NCBI GenBank assembly: GCA_000091205.1
Contig: AP006501.2
DNA length: 64,000 nt
From: Cyanidioschyzon merolae
Taxonomy: Eukaryota
Reading direction: 5' to 3' (one strand)
This document shows, piece after piece, positions 1-62,859 of the stretch. Positions within the stretch are counted from its first letter, which is position 1. Every line of letters starts with the position of its first letter. The notes under the pieces are model-generated. The model made no database searches. It was given only the letters and a program-made list of their open reading frames with translations, and was not told the DNA's origin. The position numbers and the translations under genes were made by a program.

Positions 1-1849
1 TCCATCACCTTCCCAGGGATGAAGCATTCGTCGAGAGCCAATGGTGAACTTGGATGGACCGTTTCGATACAGGGTGCCGACGAGGTCATGAGGAAGGTCG
101 GGTAAGTCCAGTACGTAGGAGTCCTCCTCGTTCATATCGCCGTGCGCTAGCTCCCAGGATCGACGATCGAAAGCACTCAGCGACTGTGTTTTACCTGGTG
201 CCGAGGTTAGCTGGCCCTGTTCACGAACCGTGTTGGTCGCTCCGCTTTCCTGGGAACTCAGATGTGTCGCACCGCCGCTGCGAGCAGGCCGAAGGCTTCT
301 TCTCTTCAGTCTGCCACATTGGAAAGTAGCGGTGGCGTTCACACTAGCGCCCTTCCAGTGCCTGAGTGCACCGTTGCCGACCACGAAGGCAGTCTTATCT
401 CCAGGATGCAAATTCATACTGCAATGATATTATACGAGTTTAATCACTGGACCAACGAGTCCTCAAACGTCGTATAGTGGCCTGCGCACGAGTCCCTTCG
501 ATGCTGTAGCGGGAACATGCGCGTGATAGAATGGACTACGAGTCAGAGGTATGCATTTGCTCGAAGGATCGATCACAGGATGCAGGGGCGATTTGTACAA
601 ACCCTTCCAGACCTAACATTTCTGTATATCATAGAACAAGCGTCACGCACGGGCATCCCGCATATGCGAAACGCGCAGCGGCGGCCTATAACCTCATTGC
701 GGGCGATGCTTGATGACCCACGATGTGCGTGTCTCGAATGGGATTTTCCCAGGAGATGCCGTCCATATCGGTTCTTGGAGGCGAGATACCTCCTCTTCAG
801 CAGACAATTCTGCATTCTACTGCCGCAGAACCGGTCTTCTCGTAGGGGATAGTTGTTCGGTGCATCCAAAGGTCCACCTAGCGCCCAGGCATGCGTAGGC
901 GATTGCTGTACCACCGTCGCGGTCGCTGACTTCAGCCAGTGCGGCTTCGCGGTGCCTTGAGAGCCCGCACTGCGTTCTATTCTCGGGCACGAGCATTGCA
1001 CCGCACTCAATGCCCGTGGACGCGCGAACGCTGCCGATAATTTTCTACTGGATTCGCGTATCGCTTAGAATACACGCTCTGATTTTTTCCATATCGCAAA
1101 CGATCGCCTCCATGAAGCAACTTTGTCGCTCACGAAGCATCCGAAAGTGACCGTTCCTAACATGCCTTCGATAATCCTGCTCAAGATCAAGTACGGCTTG
1201 AGGAAGCGAGCGGCGCGAACGCCTTTCGATGCCTCGCGCGTACGCACATGATCCCTTCCTATCTGCGCAAGATCGATGAATCTGGACAAAACTCCTCACG
1301 GACACGACGATCGAAAAAGACGTGCACACAGTCTCAAGTTTCTCGATACGCGCACGCATCTGCAGGCCATGATCACGTAATCGGAACGCTTGCACTTTCT
1401 TCACTGTGTTTCCCCTGCCCTCATGTATTCCATGCCCTGAGATCGCGTGCTTCGTCATCGCATGCCGCGCATCCCCATGAGGTATCCGGATGCTGCGCTG
1501 CTGCATTCCCCCGAGGGGGCTTTTCCTCTCCATTCGCTGCCTGATGCAGAACTAGCGTGCGTCATTGAGACTGCACCAGAACCTTGCCTTCCCCGCACGG
1601 AAACAAGTCGTCGACATATGTTATCGGTATGCAACGCGAGATGGTCTATATCGTCTTGAGCAAGAAACACCGTACATAAAGCGAGCAAATTCGAACACGA
1701 TTTCCATGATACCCAGCGACGATCGTTGAGCGAGCGCGCGGGGCGCCACACCTGTGGATCTGGTAGTAGTGTCGGTACCCGCGCTGCAGGTAACGTTTCG
1801 TGTACCCAAACTGCAGACTGAGGACCTTGTTTCCAAAGCTTTTCTCATA

Positions 1850-3607
1850 ATGTGGGTTGTACCTGGCAGTTTTAGGGCACGACGATGCGACGGTTTTGGT
1901 GTAGAATGGACCTGGTCTGTTGATCGGGCCTGTGCAACAGTTCCGTGCTCGAGCCTGAGGCGACCGCGACCACGACAGGGCGCTACGGTGCGGCGAGAGC
2001 GAAACTGGAGTCAAAAGCCGTGTGGCGTCCCGGGCAACACAGTGGTGAGAGTCTCTTGCCATATAGGGCAAAGTTCGAGTAATGACGAGGGTGGCACTGG
2101 AGAGCCTCTGGTGCACAGCAGTGGCGAACAGGCGTGGCAGCGTCGTGCGCTCTCCAGCACCGGTACAAAGGACGCGGAGCTCGACGCTAATGAGCTGGAT
2201 GACGGCCTCTGGGGTATTGTTTCTCAGCTGCCAGTCAAGCGCATTCTCATCTGGGCTGCGTTCTGCTGGCTCGTGTACCTTTGTCGCCCGTTCATGGGTG
2301 TGTTATTCGGTACGTTCGTCGTCTCGTACGTCGGGGTCTCTTTTTGCCAATGGGGCACACGTTTTCTCCAGCGGTTCGGTATCCAGGCTGCCCGCCGTGT
2401 CATTGTTGGCGTCTACTACAGCGGCATCGCTTTGTTCATCACGACGATGAGCCTGTTGACGATCCCGCGGATCATCAAAGAGGGCCAGTACTTTGTGGGC
2501 ATCATACGGAGTAGCAATCCATACGTATGGATCGCGGATACCATGCGACGAGCCCTGGGTGATGAACTCTCTGCCAAGGTGGAGGCCTTGGTGCTCTCAG
2601 AGGGTTATGCTGAGCTTGCAGACCAAGACACCGGGTCGAGTGCTGGCCAGAGCCCGTCCACAAACGGAGCCGAGACTTCCGAAAGCACAAACGAGGCTTC
2701 TCCGGGGCCGGTGCAAGTCCGCATACCGCATCGCGGCAGCGCAGCAGATGCCAAGGCGGAACGAGCCCCTGGCATCGCTGCCGGTCCGCTAGCGACCATG
2801 AATGCACCGGCAGAGTGGACAGAGGAGCGATCGAGACGACTCGGTTTGATCATCCAAAAGTCACTTTCGCGTTATGTGAATCGTTTCGCCTCCATCGTCA
2901 GCAGGATTTTGAGCAACAGCACAAAAATCATTGTGAAAGTACTGCTTTCCCTGGTGTTCTCATTCCTGATCGTCTGGGATCTGCCATCTGTGGCTGCTGG
3001 CCTGCGTTCTCTTCGCCGCTCCCGACTGCGGGCAGCGTACTTGGAACTGGCGCCGGCCATTGGTGAGTTCTGCGCCCTCCTCGGCCGTTCATTCGAAGCA
3101 CAGTCGATTATTGCGCTTGTGAACACGACGTTGACAACGATTGGCATGGGGATTCTCGGGTTACCGGGTATTGGCTTTCTCTCTCTTCTCTGCTTGATAT
3201 GCTCTTTTATTCCGCTTTTCGGGATTCTGCTCAGCACACTGCCGATGTGTGTCGTCGCGCTGACGGAATACGGGCCAATGCGTGCATTCGCCGTCGTGGT
3301 TATGGTTGCAATTGTTCACCTGATTGAGGCCTATTTCCTGAATCCACAAATCTACAGCGCTCATCTCAAGCTGCCGCCCTTGGTTGTTCTTATGGTTCTG
3401 TACATTGGCGAGCATGCAGGTGGCGTCATGGGTCTTATTCTTGCAGTGCCGCTGACGGTTTATTTGTTGCGATGGATCTATGATATTCCAGAAACGAAGG
3501 AACGTTCTGCGTACGTGAGCTCTATGCGAGCGACCAGCTCGAATGGCAGAGAAGAGCCAAGCGAAGACGTGACGATCACGCGCCAGCAGCAGCAGCAGCA
3601 GCAATAG
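1850..3607 (+). CDS. AI-2E family transporter (PerM/UPF0118-like) membrane protein with an N-terminal extension, a long hydrophilic insert and a C-terminal Q6
   Basis: The ORF track entry 1754..3607 starts with GTG. The first in-frame ATG is at 1850. The C-terminal two thirds match the AI-2E pattern of conserved Gly/Pro-rich transmembrane helices (...GLPGIGFLSLLCLICSFIPLFGILLSTLPMCVVAL...LIEAYFLNPQIYSAHLKLPPLVVLMVLYIGEHAGGVMGLILAVPL...). The roughly 120-aa N-terminal extension is compatible with an organelle transit peptide. Confidence 0.6.
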   Translation: MWVVPGSFRARRCDGFGVEWTWSVDRACATVPCSSLRRPRPRQGATVRRERNWSQKPCGVPGNTVVRVSCHIGQSSSNDEGGTGEPLVHSSGEQAWQRRALSSTGTKDAELDANELDDGLWGIVSQLPVKRILIWAAFCWLVYLCRPFMGVLFGTFVVSYVGVSFCQWGTRFLQRFGIQAARRVIVGVYYSGIALFITTMSLLTIPRIIKEGQYFVGIIRSSNPYVWIADTMRRALGDELSAKVEALVLSEGYAELADQDTGSSAGQSPSTNGAETSESTNEASPGPVQVRIPHRGSAADAKAERAPGIAAGPLATMNAPAEWTEERSRRLGLIIQKSLSRYVNRFASIVSRILSNSTKIIVKVLLSLVFSFLIVWDLPSVAAGLRSLRRSRLRAAYLELAPAIGEFCALLGRSFEAQSIIALVNTTLTTIGMGILGLPGIGFLSLLCLICSFIPLFGILLSTLPMCVVALTEYGPMRAFAVVVMVAIVHLIEAYFLNPQIYSAHLKLPPLVVLMVLYIGEHAGGVMGLILAVPLTVYLLRWIYDIPETKERSAYVSSMRATSSNGREEPSEDVTITRQQQQQQQ

Positions 3608-7199: not shown

Positions 7200-7900
7200 A
7201 AGGCGACTAGATACCACCATGCAACGGTGAGATGCATCTGGTACAAGGCACCGCGGAACGAACGCACGAGACGTTCGACTGCGTTCGTATAGTCAGCACA
7301 ACGGAAAACGTTCTGCAACCCTCGAGGGTATACGTCTATATATGTACTCACGTGCAGACGCCTATCAGCCGTTTTTTGACCTGCCACCTGCTATCGGTTT
7401 TAGTTTATCCAGGCACACTTTGAGTCTGAGAAGCTGAATAACAAAGTTGGATGGTGTCCGCTTCTCGGGTCTGGTCTTCAGCACCGCATATCCTCTAGTA
7501 TTGGTGGTGGCGTTCAAGTCTCCGTTCAAGGACGCCAAGCATTTGTATAGCCTCTGCTGGTTGCACGGACGAGTGCAAGAATAGCTAGCGTTTGCGCCCT
7601 CTGTGCTAATAAAGTCTCGTCGGCAAACATCTTTTCTCGCGTAGCTCCGCTCTTCTCCTTCTTTTTGCCCTACATCATTCGATAGTCGACAAGAAGAGTT
7701 TTTTTGTCGAACCTGGCGATGACAGGCCTCCGGGATCCCCGACTTGCATGTCCATATCTTTCCCTTGGATTTTCATTTCATCAAATGAACGTACGTTGAA
7801 CGCGTCTGCTATAAACCTCGAAAAAGCGTTTAGTCACACGCACTTAAGGCTGGAACACATTCGAGGCGAAAGACGATAACAACCGAGCCACCAGCTTGTC
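7200..7900 (+). repeat. Dispersed non-coding repeat, family A, copy 1 (about 700 bp)
   Basis: Shares collinear similarity of about 70-80% with 22380..23080. Shared strings include cagtttatccaggcaca, gagtctgaga.gctg, and tcgacaagaagagtttttttgtcgaa versus tcgaggagaagagttttttgtcgaa. It has no conserved ORF. Boundaries are approximate. Confidence 0.5.
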
Positions 7901-10505: not shown

Positions 10506-10670
10506 AACGTTTGCACTCACGCGTTGAGCATCGGGAAGTGAAGGCACAGCTGGAGCAGTCGCACTGGAAGAGGTCTCACAGTGCGGAGAGACGACGCGGG
10601 AACTGCCTCATACACGCTGAACACACAGGCGGTGGCGATTTGAATATGCGTGTTGACGCGCGTCGACAGC

Positions 10671-10937
10671 GGAGCGTTCATGCGTGCAGGTCGGCAGCAG
10701 CGCGTACTGCGTCCTGCTCGGGGTATGCTGTATTCAGCGTGTGTGAAACGACTGGATGCACCGGGCTCGTGCTTCGTAGTGAACGCTGGAGCTGGACTGG
10801 ACTACCGCGGAGCGTTCATGCGTGCAGGTAGGCAGCAGCGCGTACTGCGTCCTGCTCGGGGTATGCTGTATTCAGCGTGTGTGAAACGACTGGATGCACC
10901 GGGCTCGTGTTTCGTAGTGAACGCTGGAGCTGGACGG
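10671..10937. repeat. Tandem duplication, 2 x about 138 bp with a truncated second unit, in the RAD52/translin divergent intergenic region
   Basis: The unit starts ggagcgttcatgcgtgcagg(t/c)(c/a)ggcagcagcgcgtactgcgtcctgctcggggtatgctgtattcagcgtgtgtgaaacgactggatgcaccgggctcgtg... and is repeated almost exactly at 10671 and 10809. It yields the internally repeated ORF 10650..11012. Confidence 0.8.
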
Positions 10938-12013
10938 ATCCGACGTTCCGAAATATCGACATGTACACTGCTGTGGATATTGTCGTTATTGTCGACGGAC
11001 TGGGCACGATGAGGTGAGATGATTTTTCAAGGATGCTTCCTGGATATGCCCCCTTCCAGAGAAGGCGAAGACGCCATCGCTGTTCTGCTGCCTCTAAGCA
11101 CTTCGATGCAGCTCGGAGGTATGTGAATTTTTTGCAGGGCGCCGTACGCGACCCCTGAGGGAGGAGTTGTCGCCCGGAACACGATGGTGGACGACGACGC
11201 ACCGTAAGCGTCGCTCGTGATAGCAAGATTTGGCGTCATGCTCGGAAGGTCGCATCGCCGTGGCGAAGCGATCGTGTCGAGCCCCTCGTTTCATGCTGTA
11301 CGATCGATGAGACTCAACAGAACATCTCGGATGTGCGAATGGATTTGGCAATCCCAGGAAAACGACCAGTGCGTCTCACCGGGCGCTCCTGTGTTTGACT
11401 AGACTCAGTCGCGCCCTCAAGGTACGTATGGACGAGGCTTTGATCCGAGGATGCGCTGGCAGCCGCTGAGCGCCCTGGATCCAAGGCGCTTGCTCTGCCG
11501 ATTGCGCATCATGCTCCGCAATCTTGATGCTATCGATGCCATAAAGCAGAATGCTTGGCATTTTTCAGCCAACGCAACAAATGCTCGCCGAGAAAACCTT
11601 CGAACTGGTCCGTGGGCCTGAACGCTCCCTCGTTTGCGCTACTGAAATACCTGTCTCTGAGCGTTAGCAAAAATATGGGCGCGACCTGATGACCTGAAAC
11701 GTTGAGATGCAGCGGCGTTATCGCCACCGAGCAGGACGCGCCCGTTGTCTGTATGGTGCCCTTTAAGTTCATCGATTGTGATGCCAAATCATGCGCATCA
11801 TCAACGATGTCTATGCCACCGAAAAAAATCGCACACCAGGCTGTGCTCCGAGGGCGCATCACGTCCCGAATGTGTCGAAGACAATCGCGTCGAGGAGCGC
11901 ATGCCTGGGTGTTTCGCACGCTAAGTTCGCCGAGCGCTCTGGTTTTCGAATATGGGGACTGTGGACTAGCACCTGGCACAAAGCCCGTCTTTTTCCTCGA
12001 AACAGTAGGCAGC

Positions 12014-22379: not shown

Positions 22380-23080
22380 TGCGAATACGCACTCTGGATA
22401 GACGTACGGCTTCGAGTGGATGCAAAGCGAGGCGTCTCAGGTCTGTGGGGCAATGCGCATTGCCAATACGATCGGGAAAACGAACAATGTCCAGCGACGA
22501 TGCAGGGTACATGAATAGACTCCCGTGGACGGCTTCCAGTCATTTTTGAACGGCCCGATGCCATCGGGTTCAGTTTATCCAGGCACAGTGCGAGTCTGAG
22601 AGGCTGCTTCACAAAGTCGGCTCGCGTCAGCTCCTCAGATCTCGTCTTCAGGACCGCAGCTTGTCTGGTCAAGAGTACGGCGTCAAGGCTCGGGTCACGA
22701 ACGCCATATGTTTCTTGCCTCGCGTTGAACTCAGCCATGGAGGGAGTCCTAGAAAACGTGCCCGCTGTACGACTAGAGTCTCGTCATCGTCTCGTCGGGC
22801 AAACACCTTTTCTAGCCTATCTCCGCTCTTCATCCGCATCACTTGCACTTCTTCGCTCGATCGTCGAGGAGAAGAGTTTTTTGTCGAAACTGACGATGAC
22901 GGTCCTTCAGGATCCCGGATTTCCATCTCCGTACCTTTCTCTTGGGTTTTTTGTTTCCTCAAATGGACACACTTTGAACACATCTGTTATAGACCGCGAA
23001 TATACACTTCATGACACGCACCCGGAAACGGAACACCATTACGGTAAAAGACACCAGCGTACACCGCTGCAGCTACCTTG
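22380..23080 (+). repeat. Dispersed non-coding repeat, family A, copy 2
   Basis: Collinear with 7200..7900 (see that feature). Same orientation, about 15 kb away. Confidence 0.5.
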
Positions 23081-34331: not shown

Positions 34332-35456
34332 TCATGGATGAATAGTATCTTTGAATTCAAAGAACGAGTCATGCATGCGAATGAAAGAGTACTCCTCGCA
34401 TGACCCACAACACCCGTATAAATTAGGTTCTTTGTGAAAGATAGCGAACCCGGCGTGCATAAAACCTTGGAAAAACTCATCCACTTCTGGGATAGAGGCG
34501 ATACCCGCGTGCACTTCGATAAGGACTTGATTCACGTGCCGCAGCGCGTGCCAGGTTCTCAAGGCATATTGCTCTTCAGAGCTGAGTTCACGTTGGCTCC
34601 GTCCTTGGCGAAGGAGCTTGTCGGCTGCCCGGAACGCTCCCAAGAAAGAGGTGAACTCACCACCCTCGATATCGATCTTGAGCACCTCGACGACGTTTGG
34701 CAGCTCCAGGTGACCCAATCCAGACATGATCTCCGCCAGCGAATTGTTGCTCTCAGCCGGGCCAAGCGGCCGGCGAAAAAAACGAACGCGTTCCAGAAAG
34801 CTCTCGGAGTGCATCGCAGATGGTGGCGATGATGTTGGGTCAAAGACGAAAAAATCGCAGTCCGGCAAGCGTTCATGAAGCTTCGTTTCGAAACTGAAAT
34901 CGTTGTTGCTACCAAAACTGTACACAATGCAGCGATACGGGAGCCTGAGCTGCTCACGAAACAGCCGTCCCCGGTTCAGGATAGCAGGTGGGTCGCACAC
35001 CCATTTGCCACCGTCTCCGTTGTTACCGATCCGTTCCTCTAAGGCACAGCCGATATCCGGTTCCCAGTTATTGTAGAAAAAAACCGACGGGTTCGGTTCG
35101 AGGGTAACGGTCTGGCGCTTTCGCTGACGTCGTAACCGAATCCTCCGTTGGGCCCAGAGCGCGTCCGACTCGCACCAGAAGCCGAGCGACTCTTTCAGTG
35201 CTCGCGTGTCCTTCGAAGTCACTGGTAGGGTCCGGTCCCAAATCTCCGTCAGGGTTTTCGCGTTGCGCAAAGAGCTCCCACGACGAAGAGCCCTCGACAC
35301 GGAGCGAACGCAGCTGTCATCCACGGCGGGAAGATCCGCGCGCTGGACACCACTAGAGCGTCCGTTGAGAACACTAGTAGCGCGGTATATTACGATAAGA
35401 GCATAAATAAGAAAAGTCAAAGCCCCTGAAGCGATGCACGGTTTTCGCCACGTCAT
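34332..35456 (-). CDS. FkbM-family (Methyltransf_21-like) methyltransferase domain protein with an N-terminal hydrophobic anchor
   Basis: Shows ...CIVYSFGSNNDFSFETKLHERLPDCDFFVFDP...LKIDIEGGEFTSFL.... The first 80 codons of the track ORF 34332..35696 are a frame-shifted read of the element copy-1 3' tail (GRPLKVELYEKK echoes [12 protein letters not shown] of copy 2). I therefore place the start at the first ATG outside the element, 35456 (MTWRKPCIASGALTFLIYALIVIY). Confidence 0.5.
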   Translation of the reverse strand: MTWRKPCIASGALTFLIYALIVIYRATSVLNGRSSGVQRADLPAVDDSCVRSVSRALRRGSSLRNAKTLTEIWDRTLPVTSKDTRALKESLGFWCESDALWAQRRIRLRRQRKRQTVTLEPNPSVFFYNNWEPDIGCALEERIGNNGDGGKWVCDPPAILNRGRLFREQLRLPYRCIVYSFGSNNDFSFETKLHERLPDCDFFVFDPTSSPPSAMHSESFLERVRFFRRPLGPAESNNSLAEIMSGLGHLELPNVVEVLKIDIEGGEFTSFLGAFRAADKLLRQGRSQRELSSEEQYALRTWHALRHVNQVLIEVHAGIASIPEVDEFFQGFMHAGFAIFHKEPNLYGCCGSCEEYSFIRMHDSFFEFKDTIHP

Positions 35457-35489
35457 GCCGGCCACTGAAAACAAACGTCTTTCAAAAGA

Positions 35490-38400
35490 AAAACGCTGCC
35501 GCCAACGGTGTACAGTAGTTACGGGAAACGCGCCGTAAGCAAATCGTCTCCAGCTGAGGTGCAGACGCATCCCCGTCTTTTTCGACCGTCCACCTACTAC
35601 GTCTTTCATTTTCTTCTCATATAATTCCACTTTGAGAGGTCGCCCCACAGGTTCTCTCGTGTCGAATCTGGAGGTCTTTTCTCCAGCACCGCACATCTCC
35701 TGATATTGATAGCGACATTAAAGTCTCGGTTCACAAACTCCATGCGTTTCTTGCCATCTTTGGTTGTGCTTACTAATGCAAGTAGCCCACGAACTTTCGC
35801 CCTCCTTTCCATTTGCTCCTCCGTCAGCGGTCCGTACTTTGCTATTTCGTCAGGGCTCCTCTGGCACTTTTCCATCTCGATCCTTTGAAGTGTACAACAC
35901 AGTTCATGGTGTGTATACGATGTTCGGAACTCATCTACAGGTATTGTAACTAACCTGTCTGCACACCCCTTGTACGTTCTTGTCGTTGGAGCTCGTGTAC
36001 ACTCTTTTTCAGACGCCTAGCGCCCTGCTCCGTATGCTACTACCAGCCTTTGACTTTCATCCTCTTTGAAGGCACTCAGCTGACTGAAAAAGTTCGCGAA
36101 CGCACACTGCTTGCCACCGTATAGATTCATACGCAATCGAGGCCACCGGGGCTTTGTATACTCTTTCCACAGTGCCTCCTAATGAGCAATACGAACTTTC
36201 ATGAACTCCCGAAAAGCTTGAAAATCTGCTCCGCGGCTCGTCACCTCGCTCAAAGCTTCCAGGTGCTCTTTCATTCCTGCATTGCATGTCTCGTTTTTCT
36301 TCCTCGTATTCATCACACCGGATTCTCGATAGTATCTCGCTCTCGGGAACCTCAAAAGACGCATGTCTTTCTGAATGAAGTTGCCGTCTGGACCATATTC
36401 CGCACGCCTGGGTACAGCGATGGCTGTGACATTCGTATTCCCAGGGTCCGCGCCAACGACAAAGTCGTTATACTTCCTTTTCTGTGTGGCACAATCCGCC
36501 TCCTTCTCATCTTCATACCTCGTCACGTCAACGACAACGTCGTCATCCTCTACCTCTTGCGTAGCAGGATCCGCGTCTTTGTTTTCCTCATCCTTCGTGA
36601 CGGGCGCAGCCGAGGACGGAACTGGCCGAGCTGCCTTCAACCGCCGATAGTCTACACACTAGGCTACTCCATCGGTTTCGATCATCCCCGTGAATACCTT
36701 TTGCTTGCTCGTTTTGAGACGTTTGAAATCGAAGATGTTCTTCCAGTACGTCTCCCTGGTTTCACGGGTGAACTCTCTTTTCCTAAAGTTGAACTCCGGA
36801 CTGATTTCCCTCATGATGCCGTAAAGGACGCCGGAGTCGATAGTCACATAATGTGACTTGATGTTGCACAACGGAACGACGTTGAAGCGCTTCCCCATTA
36901 GGAAAGCCTTCTGTCTCTCCCACTCTTCATTCTTGTCCTCACTCGGCTTCATCTCCGCCTTGCGTTCGAGTTCACGGTCCAGAAACACGAAATAGCGCAG
37001 GATGAGGCGATAATGTCTTTCCTTATCTTTTTTCAACTCTGATACCTTTGCTGCTTGATTCGCCAGCCCCAGTACCGCACGGTGCTCTTGTATAGGCGCA
37101 CGGATTACAGAAGCTTCATTCGTGCTCCTGTGTGACGTCTTCTCATCAACGAATTCGATCTCATCTTCATGCTTGCGATCGTTCGTGATGCCATCGATAA
37201 TCGCCCATATTCCTTTGCGAGAGATGCCCGGATAGAGTGCAAACACCGCGCGTATGATGAAACGTTGGAGCTTCATGGTCATATGGTTCCTCAAGTTCGT
37301 GACGTACGTTTTCATCGCCCCGTAGGTGTAAACACTCGAGTCACCCCTGTATCGAGCACCGCCGAAGCGGGATTCGGTGTGGTTTTCGTGGAGGGCATGC
37401 ACTAGCTCATTTTGCTTCCGCGTTTCCGCTGTACCAAGCATCAGATGGCGAATAAAAGTCTTGTCGAATAATTCTTTCCGAACTTCGACTGTTTAGATGT
37501 CCGTCACGTCGCGATACATCCTCTTCACCAAATGCATGAGTCCTGAAGAGGCCTTTACAATACTCAAGGAGTACGACTCGTCATGGGTTCTGATAGCCTC
37601 CCGCACTTTTTCCCTGTACGGATCCTTGATATGTCCAAGAATACAGACTTTCACTACTGTCTCGTCGTACTGTCGTCTTTCTTGCAGCCATTGGCGTCGG
37701 GCTTCCATCTTTTGCTTCTTGGCCCTCTCCAGTTCCTGTGGACTCGGCACTGTTTTTCGGTTTTTTTTCTGGAAACCGGCGACACACTGGGCCTCCGGCA
37801 TCCTCCACTTCCACTTACGTACATTTCCTTTTTATTTTTTTGAAAAAGGAACCCCCTTTGACTGCTTCTTCTATGAACCGCGAACAATGACTTGAATACA
37901 CTCTCTTGAGAGTTGAAACACAACGGAATCGAAAAAATATACTTTGCTACGGCTTCAGAGCGAATACTACTCGTACATTAGAGCAGAATGCTAACGATCA
38001 GGATCGCGTTTCACTTCAACGGCGAGAAGCACGTCATGTATCATGCCCGCCAGATATGGAGATACGCGCATCGACCATGCTACACAAAAAAGGAAGAGAA
38101 ACTAGCAGTTCAATTGCAACGAGATAACGATTTCTTCTCCCTCTATGATACATATTAAAAGGGAGGCAAGATTTCCATGTAGTCGAAACTTTACTTTCCG
38201 GGCGGAAGGCCCTGCGAGCCGGACGAGTCTGCTAGACCAGTCCTTCATGATCTTCCCAGTGCTCAGTGCTGTGGTGATATTCGAGCAACTCGACCGAAAC
38301 GCAGTTTATTCTCGGGCCGGGGACGGGTATGCTGCGTCTGGGCATCGCGCTGGTCGCAGTGGACTCCTACAAAGTCGTTTCGCGCCACACTACACTGTAC

Positions 38401-38575
38401 CTCTGTCTGCGCAGAGTGCATGCTCCCAGGATGATATTGAATCCCGACCACGTTTCAGGTGAAGCTTTCCTCGATCCGAATCCCTCAGTGGTATGGCAAA
38501 GCCGCTCTGCCTCTATGATGCATCGGCATCAGCCGTATAAGCGCTTTTGCTGGAGGTCAAAGCGGGCACTCGGCG
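35490..38575 (-). mobile_element. TnpB/Fanzor-like RuvC-nuclease element, copy 1 (more decayed), inserted between the divergently transcribed FkbM-like and O-methyltransferase genes
   Basis: An about 3.08-kb block collinear with 58620..61636. The 5' 1.7 kb is about 99% identical between copies and the 3' 1.2 kb about 80-85%. Similarity stops at ...gggcactcggcgc (38575) and fades out near 35490. Confidence 0.6.
35606..37801 (-). pseudogene. Disrupted Fanzor/TnpB-like ORF of copy 1
   Basis: ORF0 37493..37801 (basic N-terminus, KKNRK / RAKKQK). In-frame TAA. ORF A 36659..37441, ending at a TAG where copy 2 has CTG. Fragment 36179..36640 carries RuvC-I ([11 protein letters not shown]). A gap at 35875..36179 lacks an ORF. 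Fragment 35606..35875 carries RuvC-III (NRDFNVAINI). Confidence 0.6.
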
Positions 38576-38794
38576 CACTTTAGTACTCACAAAACGATCC
38601 GTATATCCGAGAGGAAGTAAGCGTCATGGAACTTGAGGATAGGGTGCATCATGATGGACACTTTTTCGATTATTAATCCACATCCCGCAATTTGCGATCC
38701 AAGTACAATCTGAGCGTTTTGTCAAACCGAAAAGAAATCACCATGGCTGCAGACGCCCCCGGCGTGCTCACGAGTTGTTCAGCTCAGCGCCTCT

Positions 38795-39931
38795 ATGGTT
38801 CCAGAAGGTGCTTGCTCTGCCAAGGAGCTCACTGAAAACGACCAACTCCGCCAAATATATGCAATTTACTATGGCAACCGCAAAGCAGCAGTCCTTGCCG
38901 TTGCCCAGCGTTACCGAGTTTTTGACTTTTTAGAAGCCCGCGAACCGGCCGGAGCAACCCTCGATGATATCGTGCAAGCATACGGCTTTTCAGTTCGCGG
39001 AACGAAGGCGCTACTGCTTGCACTCGAGTACCTGAATCTGGTAAAGATTGCAAATGATCGCTACTTCCTAGCACCGTCCAGTCGACAGTTCTTGGTTTCC
39101 ACTGCACCAGAGTCTGTCGCTGGCTTGATCGACCTGGAGTTCTCGGAGTTTATCACACCGAGCGCCCTTGACCAAGCTTTACGTTCCGGACGACCACAAG
39201 TCTACGACGCTGTACCAGACGTATGGCAACAACACCAACAGGATACAGAGCGCTGCGTCCGCTTCACAGCTGCGATGCACGCTATCAGCAGTGGACCCGC
39301 TCGTGCTATGGTCCAGAGGCTCGCCCTCGAGCCGCACTGGGGCCTGCACGCGTCACTGGCAACGCGACCGCATCGTCTGCTTGATGTCGGTGGTGGCAGT
39401 GGCTGCTATGCCATCGAATGGATGCGGCATGCACCTGTACCTAACAGCGAAGCCGACGTGCTCGAGACGCCAGCCTGCAGCCGCGTGACCCAGCACTACA
39501 TCGACGAGGCCGCTTCGAGCATCCAACCGAATCGTATTCGCGTCCTGCCCGGTGATATGTTCACAGAAGAAGCGTACGGTGATGCGAATAGGTATACGCA
39601 CGTCCTGCTCTCGCAGATCCTTCACGACTGGCCAGTGCGTAGCGAGGCGTCGTCCGCACCGCGGCGAGATGGCGAACGCCTGGTAGAACTTGCGTGGCGG
39701 GCGCTATCTCCTGGAGGTGTCCTTGTTGTTCACGAGAAACTCGTGCACGATGAAGACTCCGCCATGGTGACTATAGATATGTTGCATTGGACCCAGGGTC
39801 AACAGTACACAGAGGCGATGATGCGGGAGCTGTTACGCGATGCGCATTTTATCGAGGTGCGCTTTCGGAAGACGCCTCACACCTACTGGTGGCTAGCCCT
39901 GGCGCAGCGACCATTCACCCCGAGTACGTAG
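38795..39931 (+). CDS. Family-2 (plant/bacterial-type) O-methyltransferase
   Basis: Has an N-terminal dimerisation/winged-helix region and a SAM-binding block RLLDVGGGSGCYAIEW...IRVLPGDMF...HVLLSQILHDW...GGVLVVHEKL. ATG confirmed at 38795. Confidence 0.6.
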   Translation: MVPEGACSAKELTENDQLRQIYAIYYGNRKAAVLAVAQRYRVFDFLEAREPAGATLDDIVQAYGFSVRGTKALLLALEYLNLVKIANDRYFLAPSSRQFLVSTAPESVAGLIDLEFSEFITPSALDQALRSGRPQVYDAVPDVWQQHQQDTERCVRFTAAMHAISSGPARAMVQRLALEPHWGLHASLATRPHRLLDVGGGSGCYAIEWMRHAPVPNSEADVLETPACSRVTQHYIDEAASSIQPNRIRVLPGDMFTEEAYGDANRYTHVLLSQILHDWPVRSEASSAPRRDGERLVELAWRALSPGGVLVVHEKLVHDEDSAMVTIDMLHWTQGQQYTEAMMRELLRDAHFIEVRFRKTPHTYWWLALAQRPFTPST

Positions 39932-56792: not shown

Positions 56793-57659
56793 TGGATATG
56801 AGTATAATGGCCAACTCGAGTGGCGAGCTGTGCATCCATGTGGCGGTGAACGAGTCCCGAAACGGTCGCTTGCTGAATACAGTCTACCTGTGGTCGACTT
56901 GTGCGCTGTTTCGGGCGCTTCGCAGAGTAGTCTCTGCTTATGCGTGCTCTGTCGGTCCGCCAATGCGGCTCGCGTCGAAGAGGGTATACAGCTGCTGAAA
57001 ATGTTCACCACGGTCGGTGTTCAGAAGTCTCTGCTTGTGCGTGCTCTGTCGGTCCGCCAATGCGGCTCGCGTCGAAGAGGGTGTACAGCTATTGGAAATG
57101 CTCGCCTCGGTCGGTGTTCAAAGCATCTGCGAGGAGGCCCTGCTGCCGTCCCAAGCGCAACAAATGCCCCAGTTCCGATCGTAGGAGCCATCCCGTCGCA
57201 GGTGCGCTGGTTTCACGCTCATTGACTGTTTTGACGGCGACGCGCTGGCGTGCAGCACTTGGTGACCCATGGGACGCTTCCAGACATCCGCGGTTCCGTT
57301 CAGCGCTTGCCTTTACGCCGTCCTGGTTCAACGGGAACGTCAGTCATCTCGAAACGGCAGCGTGTACCTACTCTGGTTTTAGGCTTCACGAGCGTGGATG
57401 AGCGGCTCACTAGTCGCTGCCTTGTCCCTAATGCGTCAGCATTCCACTTCCACGTGTCGAGCGTAGCACGTTAGGGTCTCCCTATCGCTAACTCGAAGCT
57501 GGTCCCCGGAAGCAGCTCTCTCCAACAGAGCCGCATCCCAGCTGAGGAATCAGCGCAACAGTTACAGCGACCAGGCGTTCACAACTCACTGTGCTCTGGG
57601 GGACTGCAGAACACGCAAGTCCATGGAATACTCTGGTTAATGGCGTGCAATCAAGATCA

Positions 57660-58619: not shown

Positions 58620-58740
58620 CTACGCTCTGATGTCGGGCGTCGCCACCAGCGGTGTAGAATAGTGGCGAGAAAGTCGACCCAGAAAAATCGTTTCTAGCTG
58701 TCGTGCAGACGCCTCCCCGTCCTTCTCGACCGGCCACGTA
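58620..58740 (-). ncRNA. Candidate omega-RNA (guide RNA scaffold) region immediately 3' of the RuvC ORF stop codon
   Basis: The non-coding sequence 3' of the stop is conserved between copies for about 110-120 bp (for example gtgcagacgc.tccccgtc, aaatcgt.tc.agctg). It ends where the unrelated host flanks begin. This is by analogy with TnpB/Fanzor loci only. Confidence 0.25.
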
Positions 58741-59856
58741 CTACTGGTTCCATTTTTTTTCATATAGTTCCGCTTTGAGAGGTTGTCCAAGAAAAAGCTC
58801 TCGTGTCCACTCTGAAGGTCTTCTTTCCATCACCGCACATGTCCTTATATTGATAGCGGCATTAAAATCTCGGTTCACAAACTCCATACGTTTCTTGCCA
58901 TTGACTGTACTTAATAATGCGAGTAGTCCTCGAACATTCGCCCACCTTTCCATATGCTCCTCCGTCAGCGGTCCGTACTTTGCTATTTCGTCAGGGCTCC
59001 TCTGGCACTTTTCCATCTCGATCCTTTGAAGTGTACAACACAGTACATGGTGTGTATACGATGTTCGGAACTCATCTACAGGTACTATGACAAAACGTCG
59101 TGCGTACTCCTTATACGTTCTCGTCGTTGGAGCTGGTGTACACCCTTTTTGGGTCTTCGAGCGCGCTGCTCCGTACGCCACTACGAGCCTCTGACATTGA
59201 TCCTCTTTGAGGGCACTCAACCCATTGAAAAAATTCGCGAACGCCCGTTGCCTCCCACAATATAGATTCATACACAGACGAGCCCACCGAGGCTTTGTAT
59301 ATTCATTCCGCAGCGCATCCCAATGAGCAACACGAACATTCATGAATTTCAGAAAAGCTGTAAAGTCCGCTCCGCGGCTCGTCACCTCGCTCAAAGCTTC
59401 TACGTGATCCTTCATTCCTGCATTCCATGTCTCAATTTTCTTCGTTGCATTCATGATTCCCGATTCTCGATAGAATCTTGCTCTCGAGAACCTCAAAAGT
59501 CGCATGTCTTTCTGAAGCAAGTTACCGTCCTTACCATCTTCGGCACGCTTGGGTACAGCGATGGTTATGATATTTGTGTTTCCGGGGTCCGCGCCAACGA
59601 CAAAGTCTATCTCATGCACTTTCAGTGCCGCAGGATCCGCGTCTCTGTTTTCCTCATGCTTCGTCATGGGCGAAGCCGAAGGCACGATAGGAAGAAACGC
59701 CTCCAAGCGCTTGCAGTCTACACACAGGGCTACTCCATCGGTTTCGATCATCCCCGTGAATACCTTTTGCCTGCTAACTTTTGAGACGTCTGAAATCGAA
59801 GAGACTCTTCCAGTACGTGTCAGGGGCTTCGCCGGTGAACTCTGTCCGCCTTCCAT
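58741..59856 (-). CDS. Element ORF B: TnpB/Fanzor-type RuvC nuclease domain with a degenerate zinc-finger insert
   Basis: Ruv[20 protein letters not shown]. Ruv[29 protein letters not shown]/Zn-finger remnant H..CC....C. Ruv[23 protein letters not shown]. The order and spacing are as in TnpB/Fanzor/Cas12. It continues the ORF A reading frame after the +1 shift (shared ...[13 protein letters not shown]). Confidence 0.65.
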
Positions 59857-60508
59857 CGAACTCCGGACAGATCCCCTTCATGATGCCATGAAGGACGCCG
59901 GAGTCGATAGTCACATAATGTGACTTGATGTTGCACAACGGAACGACGTTGAAGCGCTTCACCGCTAGGAAAGCCTTCTGTCTTTCCCACTCTTCACTCT
60001 TGTCCTCACTCGGCTTCATCTCCGCCTTGCGTTCGAGTTCACGGTCCAGAAACACGAAATAGCGCAGGATGAGGCGATAATGTCTTTCCTTATCTTTTTT
60101 CAACTCTGATACCTTTGCTGCTTGATTCGCCAGCCCCAGTACCGCACGGTGCTCTTGTATAGGCGCACGGATTACAGAAGCTTCATTCGTGCTCCTGTGT
60201 GACTTCTTCTCATCAACGAATTCGACCTCATCTTCATGCTTGCGATCGTTCGTGATGCCATCGATAATCGCCCATATTCCTTTGCGAGAGATGCCCGGAT
60301 AGAGTGCAAACACCGCGCGTATGATGAAACGTTGGAGCTTCATGGTCATATGGTTCCTCAAGTTCGTGACGTACGTTTTCATCGCCCCGTAGGTGTAAAC
60401 ACTCGAGTCACCCCTGTATCGAGCACCGCCGAAGCGGGATTCGGTGTGATTTTCGTGGAGGGCGTGCACTAGCTCATCTTGCTTCCGCGTTTCCGCTGTA
60501 CCAAGCAT
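59774..60508 (-). CDS. Element ORF A: N-terminal (non-RuvC) half of the Fanzor/TnpB-like protein
   Basis: ATG confirmed at 60506..60508. It is 244 aa and about 95% identical to copy-1 ORF A (36659..37441). It ends at a stop created by a +1 insertion relative to copy 1 (aaaagttagcaggcaaaagg versus aaaacgagcaagcaaaagg). Confidence 0.55.
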
Positions 60509-60559
60509 CAGATGGCGAATAAAAGTCTTGTCGAATAATTCTTTCCGAACTTCGACTGT

Positions 60560-60883
60560 TTAGATGTCCGTCACGTCGCGATACATCCTCTTCACCAAAT
60601 GCATGAGTCCTGAAGAGGCCTTTACAATACTCAAGGAGTACGACTCGTCATGGGTTCTGATAGCCTCCCGCACTTTTTCCCTGTACGGATCCTTGATATG
60701 TCCAAGAATACAGACTTTCACTTCTGTCTCGTCGTACTGTCGTCTTTCTTGCAGCCATTGGCGTCGGGCTTCCATCTTTTGCTTCTTGGCCCTCTCCAGT
60801 TCCTGTGGACTCGGCACTGTTTTTCGGTTTTTTTTTTCTGGAAACCGGCGACACACTGGGCCTCCGGCATCCTCCACTTCCAC
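60560..60883 (-). CDS. Element ORF0: basic (NLS-like) N-terminal segment of the Fanzor-like protein, separated from ORF A by an in-frame TAA present in both copies
   Basis: Reads ...KKNRKTVPSPQELERAKKQKMEARRQWLQERRQYDETEVKVCILGHIKDPYREKVREAIRTHDESYSLSIVKASSGLMHLVKRMYRDVTDI. Copy 2 has an A10 run where copy 1 has A8, which shifts the N-terminal frame. The in-frame start is GTG. Confidence 0.45.
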   Translation of the reverse strand: MEVEDAGGPVCRRFPEKKNRKTVPSPQELERAKKQKMEARRQWLQERRQYDETEVKVCILGHIKDPYREKVREAIRTHDESYSLSIVKASSGLMHLVKRMYRDVTDI

Positions 60884-61710
60884 TTACGTACATTTCCTTT
60901 TTATTTTTTGAAAAAGGAACCCCCTTTGACTGCTTCTTCTATGAACCGCGAACAATGACTTGAATACACTCTCTTGAGAGTTGAAACACAACGGAATCGA
61001 AAAAATATACTTTGCTACGGCTTCAGAGCGAATACTACTCGTACATTAGAGCAGAATGCTAACGATCAGGATCGCGTTTCACTTCAACGGCGAGAAGCAC
61101 GTCATGTATCATGCCCGCCAGATATGGAGGTACGCGCATCGACCATGCTACACAAAAAAGGAAGAGGAACTAGCAGTTCAATTGCAACGAGATAACGATT
61201 TCTTCTCCCTCTATGATACATATTAAAAGGGAGGCAAGATTTCCATGTAGTCGAAACTTTACTTTCCGGGCGGAAGGCCCTGCGAGCCGGACGAGTCTGC
61301 TAGACCAGTCCTTCATGATCTTCCCAGTGCTCAGTGCTGTGGTGATATTCGAGCAACTCGACCGAAACGCAGTTTATTCTCGGGCCGGGGACGGGTATGC
61401 TGCGTCTGGGCATCGCGCTGGTCGCAGTGGACTCCTACAAAGTCGTTTCGCGCCACACTACACTGTACCTCTGTCTGCGCAGAGTGCATGCTCCCAGGAT
61501 GATATGGAATCCCGACCACGTTTCAGGTGAAGCTTTCCTCGATCCGAATCCCTCAGTGGTATGGCAAAGCCGCTCTGCCTCTATGATGCATCGGCATCAG
61601 CCGTATAAGCGCTTTTGCTGGAGGTCAAAGCGGGCACTCGGCGCCCGATAGAATATACAAAAAGACTAGTACGTCCGAAAGGAGGTACCTTTCATGGAAC
61701 AAAAACGTAG

Positions 61711-62859
<1,149 letters not shown>

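Follow-up and report, generated by a model that had tools for sequence, protein, structure and literature searches.

The in-frame TAA that separates two open reading frames, ORF0 and ORF A, at two places in the window (the whole stretch of 64,000 nucleotides analysed here) is best read as a commonplace nonsense mutation carried by two dead copies of the transposon CMe-1A and shared between them through ectopic gene conversion, with slippage behind the A8/A10 difference that accompanies it. We give this reading a probability of about 95%. Judged against the published consensus, the TAA is a G-to-T nonsense change of Glu codon 108 and one among several disabling lesions. The finding is thus a routine nonsense mutation in pseudogenised transposon copies and matters little in itself. 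Care must be taken, nonetheless, with annotation and dating: ORF0, ORF A and the third ORF downstream are not to be annotated as genes, and shared lesions in repeats cannot be used to date a duplication where gene conversion is possible.

An interrupted reading frame in two CMe-1A copies

Both copies are read on the minus strand, and their features are collected in Table 1. In copy 2, the TAA and the ATG of ORF A (60508..60506) lie in the same frame, 54 nt apart from T to A, and the strand reads ATG TAT CGC GAC GTG ACG GAC ATC TAA ACA GTC GAA GTT CGG ... CAT CTG ATG CTT. When translated, the junction is ...MYRDVTDI-TAA-TVEVRKELFDKTFIRHL-ATG(M)LGTAETRK.... The junction sequence of copy 1 is identical, and in both copies the frame between the TAA and the ATG of ORF A is open for 17 codons without a second stop. 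The original prediction had described an in-frame TAA 54 nt 5' of the ORF A ATG in both copies, as well as a run of eight A in copy 1 against ten in copy 2 that shifts the in-frame ATG of ORF0, and both descriptions were borne out when the two loci were read again (the runs appear as T8 and T10 on the plus strand). In copy 1 the ORF0 frame gains an upstream ATG at 37801 (MPEAQC...), and the ORF0 listed for copy 2 begins with GTG, its first in-frame ATG being internal (MEARRQ...). Translation in three frames joins ORF0, the 17 codons past the TAA, ORF A and the third ORF into one continuous protein-like reading, which in copy 2 is interrupted only at the TAA and at a 1-nt insertion at 59778. 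The open in-frame run from the TAA to the ATG is no chance event, since it is ancestral coding sequence.

The element itself can be named. The BRX1 product encoded next to it is identical at 301/301 residues to that of Cyanidioschyzon merolae 10D (BAM82960.1 / XP_005538996.1), and the CMe-1A Fanzor1 family, described in C. merolae 10D by Bao & Jurka (2013; Mobile DNA 4:12, PMC3627910), has been known for this genome since that year. The paper counts about 150 copies, which match a consensus of ~3 kb at ~80% identity and some of which are still intact; it also describes an element without terminal inverted repeats whose first 635 bp are common to the short element TE-N2_CMe, and it is there that the CMe-1 family is placed in Fanzor1. 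In a supplementary table the CMe-1 protein is given a length of 734 aa and a single exon. The published CMe-1A consensus DNA (3169 bp) and protein were taken from the supplement of PMC3627910, and alignment to them demonstrates directly that both window copies belong to the family, at an identity that fits the published description. Judged by this alignment, ORF0, ORF A and the third ORF are remnants of one intron-less CMe-1A Fanzor1 gene of ~734 codons. The window copies resemble published CMe-1A in genome and family, in the long 5' non-coding region, in the single-exon ORF and in having no terminal inverted repeats. Unlike the published intact copies, they have lost the start and carry stops and frameshifts.

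Table 1. Features of the two CMe-1A copies, with lesions given relative to the consensus ORF
Feature	Position in the window	Strand	Remarks
Copy 2, full-length CMe-1A, now a pseudogene	58642..61797	-	consensus (3169 bp) positions 1-3147 aligned, 84.0% identity
Copy 1, full-length CMe-1A	35476..38724	-	consensus positions 4-3169, 84-87% identity; more decayed than copy 2
ORF0, copy 2	60563..60883	-	consensus codons ~3-107; N-terminal basic region and first helices
TAA, copy 2	60560..60562	-	consensus codon 108 GAA (Glu) to TAA; consensus protein MYRDVTDIETVEVPEEFF
TAA, copy 1	37493..37495	-	codon 108, same change as in copy 2
ORF A, copy 2 (244 aa)	59774..60508	-	middle of Fanzor1 protein; ATG is an internal ancestral Met (FIRHLMLGT)
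Third ORF, copy 2 (371 aa)	58741..59856	-	C-terminal RuvC half
GADPGNTN motif, third ORF of copy 2	59595..59572	-	RuvC half
Further RuvC-half motifs, third ORF of copy 2	59079..59047; 58875..58846	-	11 residues; 10 residues
Lost start, copy 2	60884..60889	-	ancestral ATG GAA now ACG TAA (codons 1-2)
Lost start, copy 1	37815..37820	-	ATG GAA now ACG TAA, as in copy 2
A10 homopolymer, copy 2	60828..60837	-	with +2 insertion at position 938 net +6, ancestral frame kept
A8 homopolymer, copy 1	37761..37768	-	net +4, out of ancestral frame; ATG at 37801 brought in frame
+1 frameshift, private to copy 2	59778	-	splits ORF A from third ORF; copy 1 reads through here
-1 frameshift, private to copy 2	58760	-
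TAG, private to copy 1	36659..36661	-	codon 385 (ATG to TAG)
TAGs, private to copy 1	36179..36181; 36017..36019	-	codon 520; codon 574
-1 frameshift, private to copy 1	near 35651	-
Putative conversion tract, copy 2	59961..61644	-	consensus 152-1880, 99.0% identical to copy 1; 3' boundary approximate
Putative conversion tract, copy 1	~36894..38576	-	14 substitutions and 2 indels in 1683 bp against copy 2
Second near-identity patch (99/100)	copy 2 58977..59076; copy 1 35836..35935	-	DEFRTS motif region

Codon 108 in the family and the decay of the two copies

The consensus DNA reads ATC GAA ACA at the site (Glu108; consensus protein DIETVE), as against ATC TAA ACA in the window, ATC GAA ACG in locus L001 and ATC AAA ACG in L002. 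A scan of JGI metagenome contigs yielded 79 loci, which together with L001 and L002 gave 83 aligned segments at codon 108. The codon is sense in 79/83 (GAA 62, AAA 9, ATA 3, CGA 3, GGA 2) and TAA in 4, and those four, L003-L006, represent the two loci of the window as found in other assemblies: they are 98.9-99.8% identical to the window over 5-7.5 kb, unique flanks included, and one contig carries both L003 and L004, at a distance of 23,066 bp. The TAA is real, fixed in the sampled population and private to this pair of loci. AAA is the codon found at this site in the copies whose local context is most similar, and the codon ancestral to this particular lineage may have been either GAA or AAA.

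Proteins give the same picture. In a collection of 5.8 billion proteins 53 relatives were found, and those that reach the N terminus cross the junction between ORF0 and ORF A unbroken. For example, P0001 reads ...MYRDVTPI-E-TVEIPHVFFDKIFIRQL... and P0025 reads ...DVTDI-K-TVEVPKEFF..., and the distant full-length proteins P0049 and P0050 (37-39% identity) are also continuous here. A sense codon at this position in other copies, with ORF0 and ORF A fused, had been named beforehand as evidence against the original prediction, and it is what the consensus, 79 of the 83 copies, P0001 and P0025 carry. This bears on the four options that had been offered for the TAA: of these only the inactivating mutation fits, and the sense codon and fused ORFs in the consensus and in relatives argue against the two-protein arrangement, readthrough and the intron.

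Sequencing or assembly error as the source of the TAA can be ruled out, since five independent assemblies, four of them metagenomic (L003-L006), are concordant. The nuclear genetic code of C. merolae is the standard one; with this code, and with a stop private to one pair of loci, reassignment of TAA was rejected.

The TAA is far from the only lesion that can be read directly against the consensus ORF. Common to both copies are the change of the start from ATG to ACG, the change of codon 2 from GAA to TAA, a +2 insertion at consensus position 938, out-of-frame changes in the length of the A-run, the codon-108 TAA and an in-frame +3 insertion. With its private lesions added, among them a frameshift towards the C terminus, copy 1 totals five in-frame stops and two net frameshifts. 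The A-run had a length of 8, 9, 9, 9, 8 and 10 over six observations of the two loci, a variation that is attributable to slippage in an unconstrained homopolymer or in part to homopolymer assembly error. The A8/A10 difference carries no functional weight: in both copies ACG has replaced the ancestral ATG and is followed by TAA, and strains vary between 8, 9 and 10 in the length of the run.

The substitution pattern points to neutral decay, as does the varying length of the A-run. In the coding part of the near-identical tract, each of the three codon positions departs from the consensus by 11-12%; in the 3' part, the figures are 7-11% for positions 1 and 2 and ~21% for position 3. Because the differences are even over codon positions, the tract has been drifting, through the greater part of its divergence, free of constraint on the protein. 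Across the whole family, codon positions 1 and 2 are conserved at ~0.90 as against ~0.79 for position 3, which agrees with the statement of Bao & Jurka (PMC3627910) that the protein was under selection in active lineages. Among the copies spanning codon 108, 26/83 lack any stop within the N-terminal segment that was aligned, and 5 keep residues 1-250 open. Neither window copy is expected to yield protein function, and both are presumably not expressed.

Mosaic identity and the competing explanations

The TAA is present in both copies because, on the reading preferred here, a 1.7-kb tract was copied from one to the other. Over this tract the copies are 99.0% identical to each other, while against the consensus each reaches only ~84%. 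Outside it, identity between the copies drops to 60% over the first 150 bp and to 75-77% over the 3' 1.2-1.3 kb. The two elements lie 23 kb apart in the same orientation, and past the element ends the flanks of copy 1 and copy 2 do not align. No third copy among 81 loci is closer than ~84% to the tract. The mosaic is a direct observation, and the same mosaic is found in the metagenome versions of both loci, so the conversion would be older than the divergence of those strains. It is best explained by two old, independently diverged elements that were homogenised by ectopic gene conversion. In the proposed course of events, the TAA would have arisen once, in the donor element, after which ~1.7 kb (the greater part of the 5' non-coding region, then the coding sequence up to codon ~325) would recently have been copied between the elements; given gene conversion, a single origin of the TAA suffices. 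The 100-bp patch may come from the same event or a similar one. Sharply bounded near-identity inside diverged paralogues on one chromosome is also what known ectopic (interlocus) gene conversion produces; in the present case we infer conversion from the identity pattern. The 1.7-kb tract of the two copies was not found mentioned in the passages of PMC3627910 drawn on here.

A plain segmental duplication, with the TAA older than the event, would account for the TAA, the ACG TAA start lesion and the +3 insertion being common to both copies. However, at either end of the tract, still inside the elements, identity falls from 99% to 60-77%, the 3' kilobases differ by ~23%, like independent family members (each ~15-20% from the consensus there), and nothing aligns beyond the element ends. 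Such a duplication is very unlikely, and the earlier argument that a shared TAA must predate the duplication loses its footing, as the copies do not stem from one duplication. A more elaborate possibility is that the tract and the 100-bp patch are the footprint of break-induced, homology-directed repair, perhaps of breaks made by the RNA-guided nuclease of an intact CMe-1. This is an improbable version of events; if it were true, dispersed Fanzor elements in the compact C. merolae genome would be actively homogenised, and dead copies would be kept alike by live ones.

Three further explanations were weighed. Programmed readthrough occurs in some viral and transposon genes, and here it would mean that the TAA is decoded at some frequency to give an ORF0-ORF A fusion. 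The frame does continue open for 17 codons beyond the TAA and runs on into ORF A, and the stop is found in both copies and in all four population samples; the stop is nonetheless not a conserved one, the consensus and 79/83 copies having a sense codon. Moreover, the ancestral ATG is lost and codon 2 is TAA, frameshifts and stops further downstream would still truncate the product before or inside the RuvC domain in both copies, substitutions are even over codon positions, and other long ORFs of the window terminate with TAA, all of which makes readthrough extremely unlikely. In favour of a retained or domesticated set of two or three small proteins are the length of ORF A (244 aa) and of the third ORF (371 aa), their ATG starts and the near-identity of the 1.7-kb tract at two places. 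Such a set is hard to reconcile with an ORF0 that in copy 2 starts at GTG with only an internal ATG in frame, and whose frame hangs on a homopolymer that is polymorphic among strains. The divergence from the consensus has no codon-position bias, the break between ORF A and the third ORF differs in place and kind between the copies, and in no family member is this architecture a conserved state; we therefore hold little expectation of separate proteins and regard them as very improbable. Finally, a short unrecognised intron could hold the TAA and be spliced out. C. merolae has very few introns. Some eukaryotic Fanzor genes have gained introns, and a GT...AG pair (GTGACGGACATCTAAACAG) flanks the TAA, but this sole pair spans 19 nt, which is implausibly short and not a multiple of 3. 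DVTDI-E-TVEV aligns codon for codon with homologues and the consensus through the site, and the CMe-1 protein is listed as one of 734 aa from 1 exon (PMC3627910 supplement). An intron can be regarded as having a negligible chance. An ordinary nonsense mutation spread by gene conversion thus stays the preferred reading.

Fanzor1 homology, the 3' end and neighbouring features

Fanzor1 proteins are eukaryotic TnpB homologues with a RuvC nuclease domain. They cut DNA under the guidance of an omega RNA, for which the right end of the transposon serves as template (PMC10432273). Linking CMe-1 to the solved members required a deep profile. A PDB search with the single protein gave no match, nor did a shallow profile of 9 sequences; a wider-family profile of 30 sequences, chosen after an exhaustive representative search (2504 relatives), matched Parasitella PpFz1 (9cf0, E=4.8e-24), Spizellomyces SpuFz1 (8gkh, 4.4e-18) and Guillardia GtFz1 (9cer, 1.7e-12). 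With this profile the DPG, DEFRT and NRD motifs of CMe-1 line up with the solved Fanzor1 proteins. Other tools were less helpful. For instance, a Pfam scan of the reconstructed protein found no family, and permissive thresholds returned only a sub-threshold Cas12f1-like_TNB hit on one 10-residue motif. The precomputed database label of the family, PF26935 (DUF8286), is uninformative, and an AlphaFold2 model of P0049 built on a 9-sequence alignment had a mean pLDDT of 41.6, too poor for use.

The Fanzor1 pattern D-X(125,275)-[TS]-[TS]-X-X-[zinc finger]-X(5,50)-RD is matched in the consensus and in the third ORF of copy 2 (59595..58846) by 13 residues of motif sequence and by NRDFNAA, all of which align with the solved Fanzor1 motifs. 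The zinc-finger site reads TSYTHHELGCTLQRVEMEKC (HHVLCC...C in copy 2) and is not a canonical CxxC...CxxC. Compared with SpuFz1, PpFz1 and GtFz1 (Saito et al. 2023, PMC10432273), the profile homology spans the REC/WED-like middle and RuvC, sequence identity is low, and the window copies could not encode an active enzyme: an intact nuclease ORF is absent in both, with the start lost, 2 stops in copy 2, 5 stops in copy 1 and frameshifts in each. Those three proteins are experimentally characterised, whereas the CMe-1 nuclease and guide RNA are predictions from sequence. Prokaryotic TnpB (IS200/IS605, IS607; the OMEGA systems) has the same RuvC D...E...D layout, [TS][TS] motif and terminal RD, the pattern being that given in PMC3627910. 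CMe-1 differs in being eukaryotic, in the much greater length of its N-terminal half and in having HH..GC...C at the zinc-finger position instead of a clear C4.

The 3' end is of interest for the guide RNA. A conserved long-range complementarity of AGTAGTGGGTGGC and GCCACTACT spans the stop codon in 24 copies (alignment A5): AGTAGTGGGTGGC, in the last codons, pairs with GCCACTACT just 3' of the stop, and a terminal hairpin, GTTCGACTTTCGAAC, follows. In the window this 3' end region lies at ~58642-58790 in copy 2 and ~35476-35640 in copy 1. Third codon positions are somewhat more conserved over the last ~150 nt of the ORF. The helix region is a candidate omega RNA scaffold of the CMe-1 Fanzor1. 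Among the 24 loci, however, no pair of the helix had changed on both sides and the covariation term was only -0.44 kcal/mol; since the helix is without compensatory changes, a guide RNA is not claimed. CMe-1 is abundant (279 confirmed matches in the metagenome scan), and with 5 fetched copies open over the first 250 codons the family could supply an uncharacterised red-algal Fanzor1 together with its guide RNA.

Further traces of the element were noted in the window. CMe-1-like relics at 7346-7878 and 22587-23017, both on the minus strand, join consensus ~786-963 to ~2851-3092, with ~78% identity between the two. Their appearance is that of a non-autonomous derivative which lost its interior and was then amplified, and they can be compared to the 'ghost loci' of Spizellomyces Fanzor1. 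Among loci L001-L081 the 905-bp region 5' of the ancestral ATG (window 60890-61797) is variable: in ~60 of the copies fetched, sharing is limited to the ~250 bp adjoining the ATG, whereas ~24 share consensus 300-650 and ~39 share 100-250. Such a distribution is compatible with subfamilies differing in their 5' modules and with the published link of the first 635 bp to TE-N2_CMe (PMC3627910). In several copies the acidic linker before RuvC has been expanded by tandem in-frame repeats that vary in number (alignment A1 columns ~480-560, with P0001, P0003 and P0007). Copy 1, for example, has an in-frame insertion of 75 bp there (window 36472-36546), private to it within the pair, and the insertions are longer in P0001 and P0007.

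Each copy faces a host gene in head-to-head orientation. Copy 2 overlaps, with its 5' end (61711-61797), the first 87 nt of a mechanically called FabG ORF, so the true FabG start is probably a downstream ATG, and the 5' end of copy 1 (38724-38795) is 71 bp from the ATG of an O-methyltransferase. A 454-aa ORF on the minus strand (window 34332-35696) begins inside the CMe-1A 3' end of copy 1; its frame runs into the adjacent host gene because copy 1 has lost the element stop (of the 3 frame changes required, only 1 lies upstream), and that host gene probably starts at a later Met (MTWRKPC). Exact-product look-ups in a gene catalogue left FabG, a 289-aa ORF, the third ORF and the 454-aa ORF unmatched, which is uninformative either way. 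Tandem duplications unrelated to the element are also present, at window 10666-10938 (136 bp at 97%) and at 56926-57130, downstream of BRX1 (109 bp at 89%).
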